In this document: piece by piece, positions 9,791 to 16,849 of the stretch
How the letters are laid out: each line of letters starts with the position of its first letter
Numbering within the stretch: the first letter of the stretch is position 1
Origin: Chloroflexota bacterium
GTDB taxonomy: Bacteria > Chloroflexota > Anaerolineae > Aggregatilineales > UBA3940
Length of the DNA: 27,920 nt
Assembly: GCA_011051745.1 (NCBI GenBank)
Contig: DRKO01000280.1
Coordinates: 1 to 27,920 of the forward strand
Direction: 5' to 3'
Made by a program: the position numbers and the translations under genes
Notes under the pieces: model-generated
The model's database searches: none
What the model was told of the DNA's origin: nothing
The model's input: the letters and a program-made list of their open reading frames with translations, nothing else

Positions 9791-10825
9791 TCAGCCTCCC
9801 GTCAGTGCGCTCAGGATCAGCCAGTCGAGCTCCTCGTAGTCGCGGGCGGCGATCAGTTCGTTGATCCTCTCCCGATCCAGTGAGCGCACCACCTCGACCA
9901 GCCGGAGGAACATGTGCAGGCTGTTCCGCAGGTGCTTGGTCGCCAGTTCTGCCGGCTGGGTGCGGAGGGCCTTCACGTCCAGCCCGACCATCCCCTTCTC
10001 GTAGAAGCGGTTCTCATCCAGCACGCGCACCTGATTGAAGGCCCGTCGCAGGTCTACCGAGCCGAAGGAGCGATCCTGATCGAACTTCAGGCCGTTCTGA
10101 TCGTTCAGGTGGACGCTCCAGAGCTTATCGAAGGCCAGCGCGAAGCTCATCTCGTCCGCCGGATCAAGCCCGGCCAGAACGGCGTGCGCGGTCTCGACCA
10201 GCGCCCCCACACGCGAAGGGTCGCTGGCCTGAAAACCGAGCGCCAGCGCGTGCCCGATGGTCGGGATGTACGCCAGGTCCATCGGCTCGTTGGGCTTGGG
10301 CTCAATGGCGATGCGAAGCTGCGGGTCGTATTCCAGCAGCGTGTTGACGGCCTCCAGAAGGCGATGGGTGGCCTGCACGGCGTCTTTGGCCTCGCGCATA
10401 TAGGTTCCTTCACGGGCCAGCCAGAGCACCATCAGGTTTGTGCCCAGCTCACGCCCGATGTCGGCGGCCTTTTTGGAGCGCTCGATGGCGTACTCACGCG
10501 CTTTCGGGTCGTTGGAGGTAAACGCCCCGTCAATCGTCATCGGGTGTTCCCACAGGCGCGGCGCGACAAACTCAGCCACCAGCCCGTGATCCTCCAGCCT
10601 GCGGCGCATCGCCCGGGCCTGCTTCGCGATCTCTGAGGCCGAAAGATCGTCAAGGTCAGGCACGGCGTCGTCGTCGTGGAACTGGACGGCGTCAAAGCCC
10701 AGATCGTTGAAGACCTTCAGCTTCTCGTCAAAGGTCAGGGAGGGACGCACGGGCGGCCCGAAGGGATCGGCCCCCTCGTGGATATTCCACGGCCCGAACG
10801 AAAAGCGATACCCGTATTTCTCCAT
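9791..10825 (-). CDS. Divergent xylose-isomerase-family protein, substrate unknown, 344 aa
   Basis: Motifs FSFGPWN, FHDDD, DGAFTSND, WLAREG, IEPKPNEP, ETAH, HLNDQ and FDQD align with XylA. ATG at 10825 with AAGGAGG upstream. Confidence 0.85.
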   Translation of the reverse strand: MEKYGYRFSFGPWNIHEGADPFGPPVRPSLTFDEKLKVFNDLGFDAVQFHDDDAVPDLDDLSASEIAKQARAMRRRLEDHGLVAEFVAPRLWEHPMTIDGAFTSNDPKAREYAIERSKKAADIGRELGTNLMVLWLAREGTYMREAKDAVQATHRLLEAVNTLLEYDPQLRIAIEPKPNEPMDLAYIPTIGHALALGFQASDPSRVGALVETAHAVLAGLDPADEMSFALAFDKLWSVHLNDQNGLKFDQDRSFGSVDLRRAFNQVRVLDENRFYEKGMVGLDVKALRTQPAELATKHLRNSLHMFLRLVEVVRSLDRERINELIAARDYEELDWLILSALTGG

Positions 10826-10914
10826 CGTTGCCTCCTTGTGGAGCGCGGGCACAGACCCGGCGGGAGCCTCCCGCGCTCTGGAAGTGTGTTCAGATTTCTT
10901 TCAGCGCACCGCCA

Positions 10915-12081
10915 TCACAGGGCAACCGTCTGCCCTGTGGCCTGAGACTCAAGCGCGGCGGTAAAGAGATCGTGGCTGCGTGCCGCCTCCTCCGGCGTGG
11001 CGCAGTAGAAGGGCTGCTGCATCCCCTCGCGCCCGTTGACCAGCTCATCGCAGAAGGCGGCCCACATCTGGAGGATGGCGTCTGAGAGGCCAAACTCGAA
11101 GATGCCGCCCGTGATGGTCGGATAGGCCGACTTATAGCCGATGTCCTCCACGTGCCAGGCCTGCGGCCCGCCCGGCGTGTACGGCAGATAGCGCAGCGTG
11201 CGGGGGTACTTGGTGCTGAACTCCGCGCTGAACTCCGTGCCGAGCACCCGGATAAACCAGGTGTCCATCTCGCCGGGGGCGATGCGTTTGGTGGAGAGCA
11301 CCATCGGGAATTGCTGTCCCCCCGCTTCCACCTCGCAGGCCAGAATGGCGTTATCCCACGTCTCGCAGGGAACCATGCGGCCCTCTTTGTCCGGTCGCTC
11401 GGTCATGATGTTGGAGAGCAGGGCACGCACGTTCTGCGGGAACCAGCCCGCGCGGAAGGGGACATGCACGACGTGCATTCCCAGATCGCCCATGCAGCCG
11501 TACTCGCCGTTGATCTCGATCATCCGCTTCCAGTTGATCGGCTTCTGCGGGTTCAGGTCGCTGCTGTGCCAGAACCCGGCTTCCACCTCGATGATCTTCC
11601 CGAAACGCCCTTCCATGATCCACTGCGTGATGCGGTATGCGCCGGGGTAGAAGGGGAATTCGGACGAGCAACGCACCAGCACATCGGGGTTGGCCTCGAT
11701 GGCGGCGTTGATCTGCTCGTTGGCCGCTTTATCTATCCCGAAAGGCTTCTCACCGAGCAGGTGCTTGCCCGCCTCGATGATGTCCACGTAAAACTGAGCG
11801 TGCAGATTGTGCGGGATGGCGCAGTAGATCGCGTCAATCTCCGGATCGGCCAGCAATTCGTGGTAATCGGTCGTCGCCAGCCGGACCGACTCGAAGTTGT
11901 CGGTGTACCAGTTCATCACCTGTGGGTTGACATCGCAGACGGCGACGATGCGCGGCAAGAACCCCGGCCCCTGCCCCGTTTTCGGGTCGGAGAGGTGCGC
12001 CCAGCGAGCGACGGCGCTGGCAAACTCGCGCCCCATCAGCCCGCAGCCGATGATCCCAAAGTCTATGATTTTCTGTGCCAT
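10915..12081 (-). CDS. Gfo/Idh/MocA-family NAD(P)-dependent oxidoreductase, 388 aa
   Basis: Rossmann motif GIIGCGLMG, GEKP, and GDLGMH (D-x-x-x-H). SD GGAGGAG upstream. Confidence 0.9.
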   Translation of the reverse strand: MAQKIIDFGIIGCGLMGREFASAVARWAHLSDPKTGQGPGFLPRIVAVCDVNPQVMNWYTDNFESVRLATTDYHELLADPEIDAIYCAIPHNLHAQFYVDIIEAGKHLLGEKPFGIDKAANEQINAAIEANPDVLVRCSSEFPFYPGAYRITQWIMEGRFGKIIEVEAGFWHSSDLNPQKPINWKRMIEINGEYGCMGDLGMHVVHVPFRAGWFPQNVRALLSNIMTERPDKEGRMVPCETWDNAILACEVEAGGQQFPMVLSTKRIAPGEMDTWFIRVLGTEFSAEFSTKYPRTLRYLPYTPGGPQAWHVEDIGYKSAYPTITGGIFEFGLSDAILQMWAAFCDELVNGREGMQQPFYCATPEEAARSHDLFTAALESQATGQTVAL

Positions 12082-12098: not shown

Positions 12099-12938
12099 TC
12101 AGGCCGAGGAGCGCAGCAGCTTCAGGGCCTCTTCCGGTGTCGCCCCTTCGTGGACAATCGCCATAAAGGCGCGGGTGATCGCCGTCGGATTCGGATGCTG
12201 GATGACGTTGCGCCCGTAGACGATCCCGCGTGCCCCCTGCTGCATCAGGTCGTAGGTGCGTTGCAGGATTTCCTCCTCGGAGGCCTTGCTGCCCCCGCGC
12301 ACCAGCACCGGCACATCACCGGCCACCTCGATGACGGTGTGGTACACGCTCACATCGTCGGTCGGGTCGGCCTTGATCACGTCGGCCCCCAGTTCCACCG
12401 CCTGACGCACCAGCGGGATGATTTTGTCGGGGTCGCCGTCCACCATATAGCCCCCGGCCACCTCGTTGGGCTGCATCACCAGCGGCTCGATCATGAGCGG
12501 CATCCCGTAGCGCTCACATTCCGGCTTCAGCCGGTTGATGTTCTGGATGCACTGGTGGTACACCTCCGGCTGGCCGGGGATGCGAAACAGGTTGACGACC
12601 ACACAGGCCGCGTCGAGGCGGATGGCCTGCTCGACCGGATTCTCGATCAACTCGCTGAAAAGATGGTGGGGCAGTTCCCGCCCGTAGACGTTGGCGATGT
12701 CGGTTCGCAGGACAAGGGACGGCTTCTCCTTGCCCGGCACGCCCTGCAGGATCGGGGCCTGACCGGGGCTGAGCTGGATGGCGTCCGGGTTGGCCTCGAC
12801 GACGGCGGCGATCACCTTCCGCATGTCCTCGATGCCGGTCAGGAAGCGCCGTTCGTTGAAGAAGCCGTGATCAATGGCAACATCAAAACACTTCCCGTCA
12901 GCAGCCAGCAGGCGGTTAAGCCGTGCGCTAACGTTCAT
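12099..12938 (-). CDS. Class I (Schiff-base) aldolase, DhnA/DeoC/LacD superfamily, 279 aa
   Basis: Motifs VAIDHG, LRTD, IEPLV, GADVIKAD (Schiff-base Lys), VLVRGG and GIVYGRNV. Confidence 0.85.
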   Translation of the reverse strand: MNVSARLNRLLAADGKCFDVAIDHGFFNERRFLTGIEDMRKVIAAVVEANPDAIQLSPGQAPILQGVPGKEKPSLVLRTDIANVYGRELPHHLFSELIENPVEQAIRLDAACVVVNLFRIPGQPEVYHQCIQNINRLKPECERYGMPLMIEPLVMQPNEVAGGYMVDGDPDKIIPLVRQAVELGADVIKADPTDDVSVYHTVIEVAGDVPVLVRGGSKASEEEILQRTYDLMQQGARGIVYGRNVIQHPNPTAITRAFMAIVHEGATPEEALKLLRSSA

Positions 12939-12966: not shown

Positions 12967-13920
12967 CTACGATTTCACCGGCGTGGAGTCCATAAATTCA
13001 AGCGTTTCTGAAAGCGAGCGGACGCCGCCCGCCGCGCCGACACCCGTCACGCACAGCGCACCGACGGCGTTGGCAAAGCGGGCTGTCTTCTCCAGCGGCC
13101 AGCCCTGCCACACCCCGGCGATGAACCCGGCGGCGAAGGCATCCCCCGCGCCGGTCGCGTCCACCACCTCCACCTCGAAGGCAGGGAGCCGCACCGTCTG
13201 GCCCTCCTGCGTCATCACAAGGCAGCCCTCCGCGCCCATCTTCAGCCCGACGGTTCCCACCCCCTCATCCAGCAGGGCGCGGGCGACCTCTGCCGGGTCT
13301 TCCAGACCGGTTAACGCCTGTGCCTCTACCAGACTGGGGACGAAATAATCGGTGTGGGGCAGGCAGGGCTTCAGCGTCTTCATCCAGCGGCCGGTGTCGT
13401 CCCAGACGGTATCCAGAAAGGTTGTCACGCCTGCCGCCTGTGCCTCGCGCAGCAGTTCGGCGGTCGGCTGGCCGTCAAGGCCGGGCATCACCAGCGCCCC
13501 GGCCACATGCAGGATGGAAGCCCCCCGGACGATCTCCCGGTCCACATCATCCAGCGTCAGGCGGGCGTTGGCCCCGATGTAGTGTACAAAACGCCGCTCG
13601 CCGTCCGGGTCCACCATGACCATCGTGGCCGAAGTCCCCGTTTCGGGGTCGCGCTTCACGCCCTCTGTTCCGATGCCGCGACCGGCCAGGGCCTCCAGCA
13701 GAAAATCGCCGAAGGGATCGTCCCCGACCTTGCCGATCACCTCAACCGGCAGACCCAGCCGCGCCAGTCCGGTCGCCGAGTTGACGGCGCAGCCGCCGGT
13801 GTGGAGACTCATCTCATCCACCAGAACCAGCCGCCCCGGCTCAGGGAAGGCCCGCAGGGGTCGCCCCACCACGTCGGCGACCATGATCCCCAGGCAGACG
13901 ATGGGCTTGCGTTCGTTCAT
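12967..13920 (-). CDS. PfkB/ribokinase-family carbohydrate kinase, 317 aa
   Basis: Motifs GGCAVNSATGLARLG, GKVGDDPFG and VDATGAGDAFAAG. Confidence 0.92.
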   Translation of the reverse strand: MNERKPIVCLGIMVADVVGRPLRAFPEPGRLVLVDEMSLHTGGCAVNSATGLARLGLPVEVIGKVGDDPFGDFLLEALAGRGIGTEGVKRDPETGTSATMVMVDPDGERRFVHYIGANARLTLDDVDREIVRGASILHVAGALVMPGLDGQPTAELLREAQAAGVTTFLDTVWDDTGRWMKTLKPCLPHTDYFVPSLVEAQALTGLEDPAEVARALLDEGVGTVGLKMGAEGCLVMTQEGQTVRLPAFEVEVVDATGAGDAFAAGFIAGVWQGWPLEKTARFANAVGALCVTGVGAAGGVRSLSETLEFMDSTPVKS

Positions 13921-14061: not shown

Positions 14062-15576
14062 TTATGCTCCCACCGTCTCCGCGATGGCCCGGAACTCCCC
14101 GGCCAGCGCGGGGTACAGAGCGCGATAGCGCGGGTAGACCTTCTCGTAGAGGGCGGCGGTCTCCGCCGATGGCGTCGTCTGGCCGGTGATCTGGATGGTC
14201 GCCTCGCAGGCGGCGGGCACATCCTCGAAGAGGCCCGCGCCAACGCCCGCCAGCAGCGCGGCTCCGAAGGCCGCGCCCTCGGTCGTGTTGACCGTCACCA
14301 GTTCGACGTTGAGCACATCGGCCATGATCTGCCGCCAGAGCGGGCTTTTCGCGCCACCGCCGGAGATGCGCACCTGCTCAATTGCCCCCAGCCCGGCCTC
14401 CCGGATCAGCGTGAAGCTATCCCGGATGCCGAAGGCAACCCCTTCCAGCACGGCGCGAGTCATGTGGGCACGGCGATGGCGCACCGTCAGCCCGACCCAT
14501 GCGCCACGCGCCAGCGGGTCGGGGTAGGGGGTACGCTCGCCGGTCAGGTAGGGCAGGAAGAGCAACCCCTCGCTGCCGGGCGGAACGTCCTCCGCCTCGG
14601 CGGTCAGGTCGTCAAAGGCAACCTCCGGCGCGAGCGTGTCGCGATACCATTGCAGGCTCCCCGCCGCGCTGAGCATCACACCCATGAAGTGCCAGCGATC
14701 CGGCACGGCGTGGCAGAAGGCATGCAACCGTCCTTCCGGCTCGACGAGGGGGGCTTCTGTGGTGGCGAACACCACGCCCGATGTGCCCAGCGTCAGCGCG
14801 ATGATGCCCGGCTGCACCGCGCCCACGCCGACGGCCTGCGCCGCCTGATCGCCGCCACCCCCGACAACGGGGGTCCCTTCCCGGAGGCCGGTTGCTGCGG
14901 CGGCCTCCGCGCTGACATGGCCGGTGATCTCCGGCCCCTCGAAGGTGGGCGGCAACCACTCAGCGGGGATGTCCAGCGCCTTCAGTACCTCCTCCGACCA
15001 GGTGCGTTTCGCCAGGTCAAAGAGCAACGTTCCCGCGCCGCCCGCGCGGTCCATGGCATACTCGCCCGTCAGCCGGTAGCGGATGTAATCTTTCGGCAAC
15101 AGGATGTGACGCGCCTTCGCGTATATCTCCGGCTCGTTCTGCTGCACCCACAGAATCTTGGGCGCGGTGAAGCCGGTCAGCGCGTCGTTGCCGGTGATCT
15201 GGATCAGGCGGTCTTTGCCCAGCCGACGGCGGATTTCGTCGCACTGGGGGCCGGTGCGCTGATCGTTCCACAGAATGGCAGGCCGCAGCACCTCGCCGTG
15301 CTCGTCGAGCAGCACCAGCCCGTGCATCTGGCCCGTCAGCCCGATGGCGGCCACCGCCGAGCCATCCACCCCCGCCTCGTCCAGTGCCCGGCGGATGCTC
15401 TGGCTGATCCCATCCCACCAGTCGCGGGGGTCCTGTTCCGACCAGAGGGGGCGCGGCGTGGAGAGGGTGAGGGGGGTGGTCGCGCTGCTGACCACCCGCC
15501 CCTGCCCATCAATCAGCAGCGCCTTGGCCCCGGTCGTTGAAACATCAATCCCAAGCAGCAGCATCTGGTCTGTCAT
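14062..15576 (-). CDS. xylB: Xylulokinase (FGGY family), 504 aa
   Basis: Motifs GIDVSTTG, GLTGQMHG, AILWNDQRT, GFTAPK, GGGDQAA, LGTSG, PYLTGERTP and GGGAKS. Adjacent to xylA. Confidence 0.9.
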   Translation of the reverse strand: MTDQMLLLGIDVSTTGAKALLIDGQGRVVSSATTPLTLSTPRPLWSEQDPRDWWDGISQSIRRALDEAGVDGSAVAAIGLTGQMHGLVLLDEHGEVLRPAILWNDQRTGPQCDEIRRRLGKDRLIQITGNDALTGFTAPKILWVQQNEPEIYAKARHILLPKDYIRYRLTGEYAMDRAGGAGTLLFDLAKRTWSEEVLKALDIPAEWLPPTFEGPEITGHVSAEAAAATGLREGTPVVGGGGDQAAQAVGVGAVQPGIIALTLGTSGVVFATTEAPLVEPEGRLHAFCHAVPDRWHFMGVMLSAAGSLQWYRDTLAPEVAFDDLTAEAEDVPPGSEGLLFLPYLTGERTPYPDPLARGAWVGLTVRHRRAHMTRAVLEGVAFGIRDSFTLIREAGLGAIEQVRISGGGAKSPLWRQIMADVLNVELVTVNTTEGAAFGAALLAGVGAGLFEDVPAACEATIQITGQTTPSAETAALYEKVYPRYRALYPALAGEFRAIAETVGA

Positions 15577-15679: not shown

Positions 15680-16849
15680 TCAGCGCACCCCCAGCAGCAG
15701 CTCAACCGTTAGCTGATCCAGCCGCTCGTAGGCCAGCCCGCGCTGACCGAGCGCCACACGGTCGAACGTCTCCGCCCTGAGCGCGGCGGCTTTATCGGCA
15801 CTGTAGGCCCCCTGATAGGCCGCCATCGAGCCGTCGTCGGCCCGGATTTCCTCCAGCAGGGCCTGAATCTCCGGGTCTTCGTTCCACTGCCGGGCCTTCT
15901 CTTTGAGGATCAGGTAGGTGCGCATGCAGCCCCGCGCAAAGTCCTTCACGCCCTCGTAGTCCTCGGTGCGGTAGGCGTGGGCGTCGAAGTGGCGGCTACC
16001 CTCGTACCCGACATCCTCCAGAAACTTGACCAGGAAGAAGGCGCTCTTCAGGTTGACCGCCCCGAAGCGGAAGTCCTGATCGTAGCGGCCAAAGGCCTGA
16101 TCGTTGAGGTCAATGTGGAACAGCTTGCCCGCCTCCCACGCCTGAGCGACGGCGTGGACGAAGTTCAACCCGGCCATGTGCTCGTGCGCCACCTCTGGAT
16201 TGACGCCCACCATCTCTGGATGATCGAGCGTCTCGATGAAGGCCAGCATCGCGCCCGTCGTCGGCAGGAAGATGTCGCCGCGCGGCTCGTTGGGCTTGGC
16301 CTCCAGCGCAAACCGGAGGTCGTATCCCTGATCGATCACGTATTCGGTCAGGAAGTTGATCGCCTCGCGGTAGCGCTTGATCGCCCCGGCGGGGTCTTTG
16401 CTGGCGTCGGTTTCGGTTCCCTCGCGCCCGCCCCAGAAGACGTACACCTTCGCGCCCAGCTCGACGCCCAGATCAATGGCGTTCATCGTCTTTTGCAGGG
16501 CATAGGCTCGCACGCGCGGATCGTTGGAGGTCAGCGCCCCGTCCTTGAAGGCCGGATCGGTGAAGAGGTTGGTGGTCGCCATGGGGACGACCAGCCCGGT
16601 TTCCTCCAGCGCCTGTTTGAACTCCCTGACGATCCGGTCGCGCTCGGCGGGGGTGGCATCAATGGGAACCAGGTCGTTGTCGTGGAAGTTGACGCCGTAC
16701 GCGCCCACTTCCGCCAGCAGGTGAACCAGCTCGACCGGCGAGAGCGGCTGCCGCACCGGCTCGCCGAACGGGTCACGCCCGATGTTCCCGACCGTCCAGA
16801 GGCCAAAGGTGAATTTGTGCTCCGGTCTGGGTTCGTACTGGTCAGTCAT
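15680..16849 (-). CDS. xylA: Xylose isomerase, class I (actinobacterial/Thermus type), 389 aa
   Basis: Motifs [54 protein letters not shown] and FDAH, with all canonical ligands present. ATG at 16849 with AAAGGA upstream. Confidence 0.93.

Follow-up and report, generated by a model that had tools for sequence, protein, structure and literature searches.

An ancient protein subfamily with the class-I xylose isomerase fold, a putative metal-1 histidine and a rebuilt active-site segment

Why would an operon that already encodes an intact xylose isomerase (XI) carry a second protein of the same family, and on which sugar would that protein act? The question arises in a 27,920-nucleotide stretch of DNA from a Chloroflexota bacterium (contig DRKO01000280.1 of assembly GCA_011051745.1), which was analysed as a whole and is called the window here. 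On its minus strand, to which all window coordinates below refer, a canonical class-I XylA is encoded at 15680–16849 (594.5 bits with the NCBIfam xylA_Arthro equivalog model TIGR02631) and a 344-residue relative, which we call XIp, at 9791–10825. The assignment of XIp to the class-I XI family follows from its translation, its matches to Pfam PF01261 and TIGR02631 and its 35–36% identity with solved XIs; the two proteins share 39% identity. The XIp frame ends with a stop codon at 9793–9791 and begins with an ATG at 10825–10823, which the sequence places 5 nt downstream of a Shine–Dalgarno motif, AAGGAGG, at 10831–10837. A list of open reading frames gives a longer version (9791–10852) with a GTG start at 10852. 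This start is unlikely, and the ATG, the AAGGAGG before it and the length of homologues (343–346 residues) together indicate that the shorter coordinates given in an earlier note on this DNA are right. A scan for promoters and terminators around the gene found none.

The earlier note had presented XIp as a paralogue of this genome, likely to be mis-annotated as xylA. Model scores and database names bear out the second point. XIp scores 221 bits with TIGR02631, far below the cut-off of 447, and 30.1 bits with the L-rhamnose isomerase model TIGR02635, for which the cut-off is 531; TIGR02629 gave no match. It does belong to the broader xylose isomerase-like TIM barrel family of Pfam PF01261 (81.6 bits against a gathering threshold of 31.1). 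Records from JGI and some NCBI entries for metagenome-assembled genomes (MAGs) nevertheless call it 'xylose isomerase' although the XylA cut-off is missed.

XIp is not private to this genome, as the tree and the protein and genome searches all place it in an old and widespread family. A search of 5.8 billion proteins with XIp returned thousands of matches, the first 120 of which are 342–353 residues long, 80–100% identical to the query and named either 'xylose isomerase' or 'TIM barrel protein'. In the ESM Atlas, the search led back only to a cluster of like proteins, again under the names xylose isomerase or TIM barrel. Among species-level genomes, XIp was confirmed in at least 555 stretches from about eight phyla. 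The best 80 of these, at 64–83% identity, come from several classes of Chloroflexota, from Planctomycetota, Kiritimatiellia, Lentisphaerae, Verrucomicrobia and Bacteroidota, and from Armatimonadota, Acidobacteriota, Zixibacteria and an actinomycete MAG. In a maximum-likelihood tree all XIp sequences group in a single clade separate from class-I XylA (100/100 support; branch length 1.15). Comparison with ten orthologues gave dN/dS values of 0.07–0.27 (about 0.1), with dS saturated. In an even sample of the window's phylum, XIp occurs in just 8 of 401 genomes, which fits a patchy accessory catabolic gene. XIp is thus a distinct, ancient and uncharacterised subfamily with the class-I XI fold; a literature search on the clade and its gene cassette found no published characterisation.

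An AlphaFold2 model of XIp has a pLDDT of 95.4, and class-I XIs make up the whole of its 50 best Foldseek matches (TM-scores 0.87–0.92). The predicted barrel and first C-terminal helices match the solved enzymes, and in the model about 45 residues of their long helical extension are missing. XIp was also predicted to form a homodimer, with an ipSAE of 0.57 against 0.00 for the best control, at least 98% of contacts shared between runs and partner pLDDT values of at least 92. The score passes a mark that 20 of 30 proteins solved as same-chain pairs also reach, compared with 1 of 23 single-chain structures. Because XI oligomers have already been solved, this score may reflect no more than likeness to them and is not independent evidence.

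The earlier note had claimed intact catalytic machinery built around a hybrid metal site. In XI, metal 1 is bound by Glu181, Glu217, Asp245 and Asp287, and metal 2 by Glu217, His220, Asp255 and Asp257 (PMC13763905). In alignments to solved XIs, every XIp orthologue keeps all of the XI ligands and catalytic residues except Asp245. The metal-1 ligand Glu181 and the catalytic Lys183 correspond to Glu175 and Lys177 in the segment E175-P-K177 (10295–10303). Within E211-T-A-H214-A215 (10181–10195), Glu211 is equivalent to Glu217, the ligand shared by metals 1 and 2, and His214 to the metal-2 ligand His220, with XI Glu221 replaced by Ala. Metal-2 ligands Asp255 and Asp257 are represented by Asp249 and Asp251 of D249-Q-D251 (10073–10081), and the metal-1 ligand Asp287 and Lys289 by Asp283 and Lys285 of D283-V-K285 (9971–9979). 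The ring-opening pair His54/Asp57, whose histidine is hydrogen-bonded to glucose O5 in XI (PMC13763905), is conserved as His50 and Asp53 of H50-D-D-D53 (10667–10678). Also retained are Trp13 (W16), Phe22 (F26), Glu180 (E186) and Asn241. The complete metal-2 set, the His/Asp pair and Lys177 are invariant in the family. The Trp, His, EPK, DQD and final Asp that had been listed as kept are therefore present, and this complete residue set, together with purifying selection, supports the idea of a catalytically competent protein.

At the position of Asp245, XIp has His239, encoded by CAC at 10111–10109. The placement is free of gaps between the flanks KL[FW] and LN[DG]Q, both in HMMER comparisons with the solved XIs 3xim and 6xia and in two MAFFT alignments. 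The residue is histidine in all XIp orthologues, which thereby depart from the XI metal-1 set, and by alignment it is placed at metal 1. In the window's XylA the equivalent codon (16111–16109) encodes Asp247, the counterpart of Streptomyces rubiginosus Asp245, as the earlier note had it. Its quoted motifs are likewise found in the translations: FVAPRLW (residues 86–92), WLAREG (135–140), ETAHA (211–215) and WSVHLNDQ (236–243) in XIp, and MATTNLF, WGGREG, EVAHE and FHIDLNDQ in XylA. The same XylA and its Chloroflexota orthologues have a histidine at the position of Streptomyces XI Lys289 (HFDAHAYR versus HFDFKPPR), where XIp keeps the lysine.

The literature agrees that Asp245 is a metal-1 ligand in XI (PMC13763905) and that L-rhamnose isomerases (L-RhI) have histidine there: in Pseudomonas stutzeri L-RhI metal 1 is bound by Glu219, Asp254, His281 and Asp327, and XI differs from it at Glu217 and Asp245 (PMC11485043). 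With Glu, Glu, His and Asp as its predicted ligands, metal 1 of XIp would be a hybrid of the two sets, combining the XI glutamate at 217 with an L-RhI-type histidine.

That a rhamnose-isomerase-type histidine lies at the metal-1 site was thus borne out by alignment, but the feature is not special to XIp. Alignments and the tree identified at least four further lineages of XI-like proteins in which His occupies the metal-1 position, and some of these have a XylA-type pocket. A short clade (P0163, P0209 and P0230; 336–348 residues) combines the histidine with a XylA-type pocket (M-T-x-N-F, NPE) and the absence of the C-terminal extension, and P0186, a long, full-length XylA-like protein, has both the histidine and a XylA-type pocket. 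The source genome itself encodes a third XI-like paralogue of 327 residues on contig C311 (L009:293-1276, minus strand), next to a GntR regulator. It bears the full L-RhI-type metal-1 set of Glu, Asp, His and Asp, with motifs IDMGHAF and FHTHWND, and its closest solved relative is 3KTC, an uncharacterised structural-genomics entry (185 bits). Since the histidine occurs in several XI-like lineages, it is a recurrent state of the superfamily and, judged from these sequences, probably an old one.

What is special to XIp, as far as sequence comparison can tell, is the signature F-A-P-R-W in the sugar pocket. The XI segment M88-A-T90-T91-N92-L-F94 is replaced by F86-V-A88-P89-R90-L-W92 (10550–10570), of whose residues F86, A88, P89, R90 and W92 do not vary within the family, and XI W137-G-G-R-E-G by W135-L-A-R-E-G140 (10406–10423), with A137 invariant except for one Ser and position 136 occupied by Leu, Phe or Tyr. 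XIp therefore lacks the XylA-conserved pocket residues Met88, Thr90, Thr91, Asn92, Phe94 and Trp137-Gly-Gly, for which it has Phe86, Ala88, Pro89, Arg90, Trp92 and Trp135-Leu-Ala. Thr90 lies in the active-site region of XI (PMC13763905). In a MAFFT alignment, 22 positions are at least 97% invariant among 81 XIp orthologues and at least 85% conserved for another residue among 18 XylA proteins. One group of these changes maps to the active-site strand and loop (in XI numbering M88F, T90A, T91P, N92R and F94W), accompanied by G139A, D245H and a change of the neighbouring G138 to Leu, Phe or Tyr. A second group, Y142, R144, D183, D221 and D224, lies in the predicted homodimer interface, where R144–D221 is among the closest pairs; the model suggests that these are co-evolved interface changes and not substrate contacts. 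The claim of a remodelled pocket thus stands for the active-site segment, whereas several of the family-specific changes belong to the predicted subunit interface. In the alignments, too, the C-terminal extension of XI is shorter by about 45 residues in XIp.

On balance, we favour the view that XIp is a two-metal aldose–ketose isomerase that would act on a sugar other than xylose and feed a ketose kinase. The coexistence of XIp with XylA in one operon and the replaced pocket make a different substrate more likely. In the proposed mechanism, His50 and Asp53 would open the sugar ring, and the substrate diol would bind at metal 1, itself held by Glu175, Glu211, His239 and Asp283. Metal 2 and Lys177 would then promote a hydride shift, as in the XI and L-RhI mechanism, to isomerize an aldose other than D-xylose. 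The imidazole in place of a carboxylate at metal 1, as in L-rhamnose isomerases, may favour Mn, Co, Zn or Fe over Mg, and the rebuilt far end of the sugar pocket (T90A, T91P, N92R, M88F, F94W and GG to LA) would carry the invariant Arg90. The ketose product would be phosphorylated by the neighbouring PfkB kinase or, in some genomes, by a XylB-type kinase, and in the window the phosphorylated ketose would then probably be cleaved by the class-I aldolase encoded nearby.

The gene neighbourhood bears on this proposal and on its competitors. One strand of the window encodes a ROK regulator, an ABC importer and two XI-like barrels, along with a Gfo/Idh/MocA oxidoreductase, xylA and xylB, a PfkB kinase, a DhnA/LsrF-type aldolase, a second Gfo enzyme and XIp, after which come a MocR regulator and another module. 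The xylulokinase gene xylB (14062–15576; TIGR01312, 604 bits) is a frequent neighbour of XIp in Chloroflexota. The PfkB sugar kinase (12967–13920), another recurrent neighbour, has E. coli YdjH as its closest solved relative (158 bits). The class-I aldolase (12099–12938) is closest to MJ0400 and LsrF, and the Gfo/Idh/MocA oxidoreductase directly upstream of XIp (10915–12081), which accompanies XIp in some relatives only, is closest to levoglucosan and scyllo-inositol dehydrogenases.

The core of the locus in close relatives from Chloroflexota is made up of xylB, an optional pfkB and XIp, with xylA present in some and absent in others; XIp shares an operon with an intact XylA in the window and in at least 11 loci. 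The most frequent neighbours are xylB, PfkB kinases and Gfo/Idh/MocA oxidoreductases, PfkB being found by tblastn at 19 of 80 loci. At 51 distant loci a PfkB gene lies within three genes of XIp in 13 cases, making it the commonest neighbour family there, ahead of Gfo oxidoreductases (9), PIG-L deacetylases (7) and DegT aminotransferases (5). Many of the 80 loci have no recurrent partner at all. The neighbourhood is thus not uniform, so that context yields no single substrate; the context of the very distant homologues P0123, P0127 and P0162 was uninformative.

Planctomycetota and Lentisphaerae have an arrangement of their own, in which XIp is followed by genes for a BshB1-like PIG-L protein, a NagB-like protein, a divergent PfkB and a DUF4432 mutarotase-like protein. 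This module lies 3′ of XIp at L071:11113-14057, L073:10868-14920, L078:11205-14364 and L089:11037-13636; the likeness of its 313–329-residue proteins to NagB is faint, and the divergent PfkB-like kinase has 401 residues. The module may represent an amino-sugar route. In Pirellulales, a 1166-residue FAD oxidoreductase is encoded upstream of XIp.

The strongest alternative, which we nonetheless consider unlikely, is that XIp is an additional isomerase of D-xylose. As an isozyme it would differ from XylA in its metal or pH profile, supply D-xylulose to the adjacent XylB and be able to stand in for XylA. No catalytic residue is lost, and xylB, a strong match to the xylulokinase equivalog, is the gene most often found directly beside XIp in Chloroflexota, sometimes without xylA, as would fit the production of D-xylulose: it lies beside or near XIp at 26 of 80 loci, about ten of which have no xylA within 10 kb. 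The genomes that carry XIp seem at first to point the same way. Among 50 such carriers, 25 encode a class-I XylA above the cut-off, two more have one cut by contig ends, and one has a class-II XylA, while XylB is present in 49. The 22 carriers with neither class of XylA include 21 with XylB, and in several of them xylB abuts XIp. In one genome (G403, locus L023) all that is left of xylA is an internally deleted remnant, a 167-residue frame joining XylA residues 1–77 and 301–389 (C1:48795-49280). It lies directly upstream of intact xylB-pfkB-XIp, which also fits replacement of XylA. The background rate, however, shows no enrichment. In the 401-genome sample of the phylum, XylB was found in 181 genomes, class-I XylA in 69 and class-II XylA in 19. 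About half of the XylB-bearing genomes in this sample have no canonical xylose isomerase, and just five of those carry XIp. Because XylB unaccompanied by XylA is just as frequent where XIp is absent, its co-occurrence with XIp is neutral on whether xylose is the substrate. Three further observations argue against a xylose isozyme: in many genomes, the window's included, XIp sits alongside an intact XylA in one operon; M88, T90, T91, N92, F94, G138 and G139, all conserved in XylA, are replaced; and in the PVC group XIp lies beside amino-sugar-type genes and not beside xylB.

A rather more doubtful proposal, and a special case of a non-xylose isomerase, is that the substrate of XIp is an anionic sugar, such as a uronate, sulfosugar or sugar phosphate, whose charge is read by Arg90, within a route of isomerase, 1-kinase and class-I aldolase. 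The arginine replaces XI Asn92 in an active-site segment and is invariant. The partner kinase also fits, being closest to YdjH (158 bits), which Huddleston and Raushel reportedly found in 2019 to prefer ketoses with a carboxylate end. In addition, the genes for the isomerase, PfkB, class-I aldolase and oxidoreductase form a cassette like that of the sulfo-EMP pathway, with YihS, YihV, YihT and YihU (PMC9594981). Against this, the aldolase and second Gfo enzyme accompany XIp only in the window and at loci L016, L025, L053 and L060, about 5 of 80 loci; the 25 neighbour families seen most often include no sulfoquinovosidase, sulfolactaldehyde-type or uronate gene; and a substrate-facing Arg90 is presumed from alignment. 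The known sulfoquinovose isomerases, YihS and SqvD, adopt other folds, and with no sulfoquinovosidase or sulfolactaldehyde enzyme recurring nearby, sulfoquinovose was rejected as a candidate outside this improbable anionic case. The boldest form of the proposal, which we would put forward as speculation with little chance of being right, is that XIp founds a hitherto undescribed route that resembles glycolysis, in which an isomerase, a ketose-1-kinase and a class-I aldolase would process an anionic or unusual sugar, with Arg90 reading the charged end and metal 1 tuned to a transition metal.

Least probable is that XIp performs another reaction on the same scaffold, such as ketose epimerization, or is a non-catalytic or regulatory relic: the PF01261 superfamily includes epimerases and dehydratases and the C-terminal tail of XIp is about 45 residues shorter, but the two-metal set, the His/Asp pair and the residue equivalent to Lys183 are complete and invariant across phyla, dN/dS is about 0.1 and the 50 best structure matches are all XIs.

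Two specific substrates were also considered. Ribose 5-phosphate was suggested by Arg90 and the high conservation; this candidate was rejected, as the source genome encodes RpiB (188 bits) and XIp is patchy (8 of 401 genomes). For an apiose route, a literature search yielded nothing usable.

The favoured assignment, an isomerase of a sugar other than xylose, would matter beyond this locus. XIp occurs in hundreds of species from many phyla, the majority being uncultured bacteria of the Chloroflexota and the PVC group, and the routine label 'xylose isomerase' on its family inflates predictions of xylose use in metabolic models based on metagenomes. If its substrate differs, XIp would add a new specificity to a family of industrial importance (glucose isomerase, rare-sugar production) and offer a natural case of a scaffold of the XI type whose metal site mixes XI and L-RhI features. 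The identity of the substrate would also help to decode the large, conserved sugar locus around XIp.

Among known systems, the nearest are the class-I XIs, such as XylA of Streptomyces rubiginosus and Actinoplanes missouriensis (PDB 1XIB and 3XIM). To these XIp is 32–36% identical, taking the solved class-I enzymes together, and its predicted (β/α)8 barrel matches theirs with a TM-score of about 0.9. It shares with them the metal-2 ligands, three of the four metal-1 ligands, His54/Asp57, Lys183, Glu186, Trp16, Phe26 and Trp137, and is likewise predicted to be a homo-oligomer. It differs in the change of Asp245 to His, of M-A-T-T-N-L-F to F-V-A-P-R-L-W, of WGG to WLA and of NPE to L/N-V/I/M-E, in lacking about 45 C-terminal residues, in scoring half of the XylA cut-off and in forming a separate clade. 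With L-rhamnose isomerases (P. stutzeri L-RhI and E. coli RhaA), XIp has in common the histidine at the position of XI Asp245 (PMC11485043) and, as proposed here, two-metal hydride-shift chemistry. Unlike them it has Glu211 where L-RhI has Asp254, and so departs from the Glu/Asp/His/Asp set, its sequence relation is weak (30.1 bits with TIGR02635 against 531), and no L-RhI is among the 50 best fold matches listed. The other histidine-bearing lineages (P0163/P0209/P0230, P0186 and L009:293-1276) share with XIp the replacement of Asp245 by His, and some are also shortened at the C terminus, but none has the F-A-P-R-W signature of XIp.
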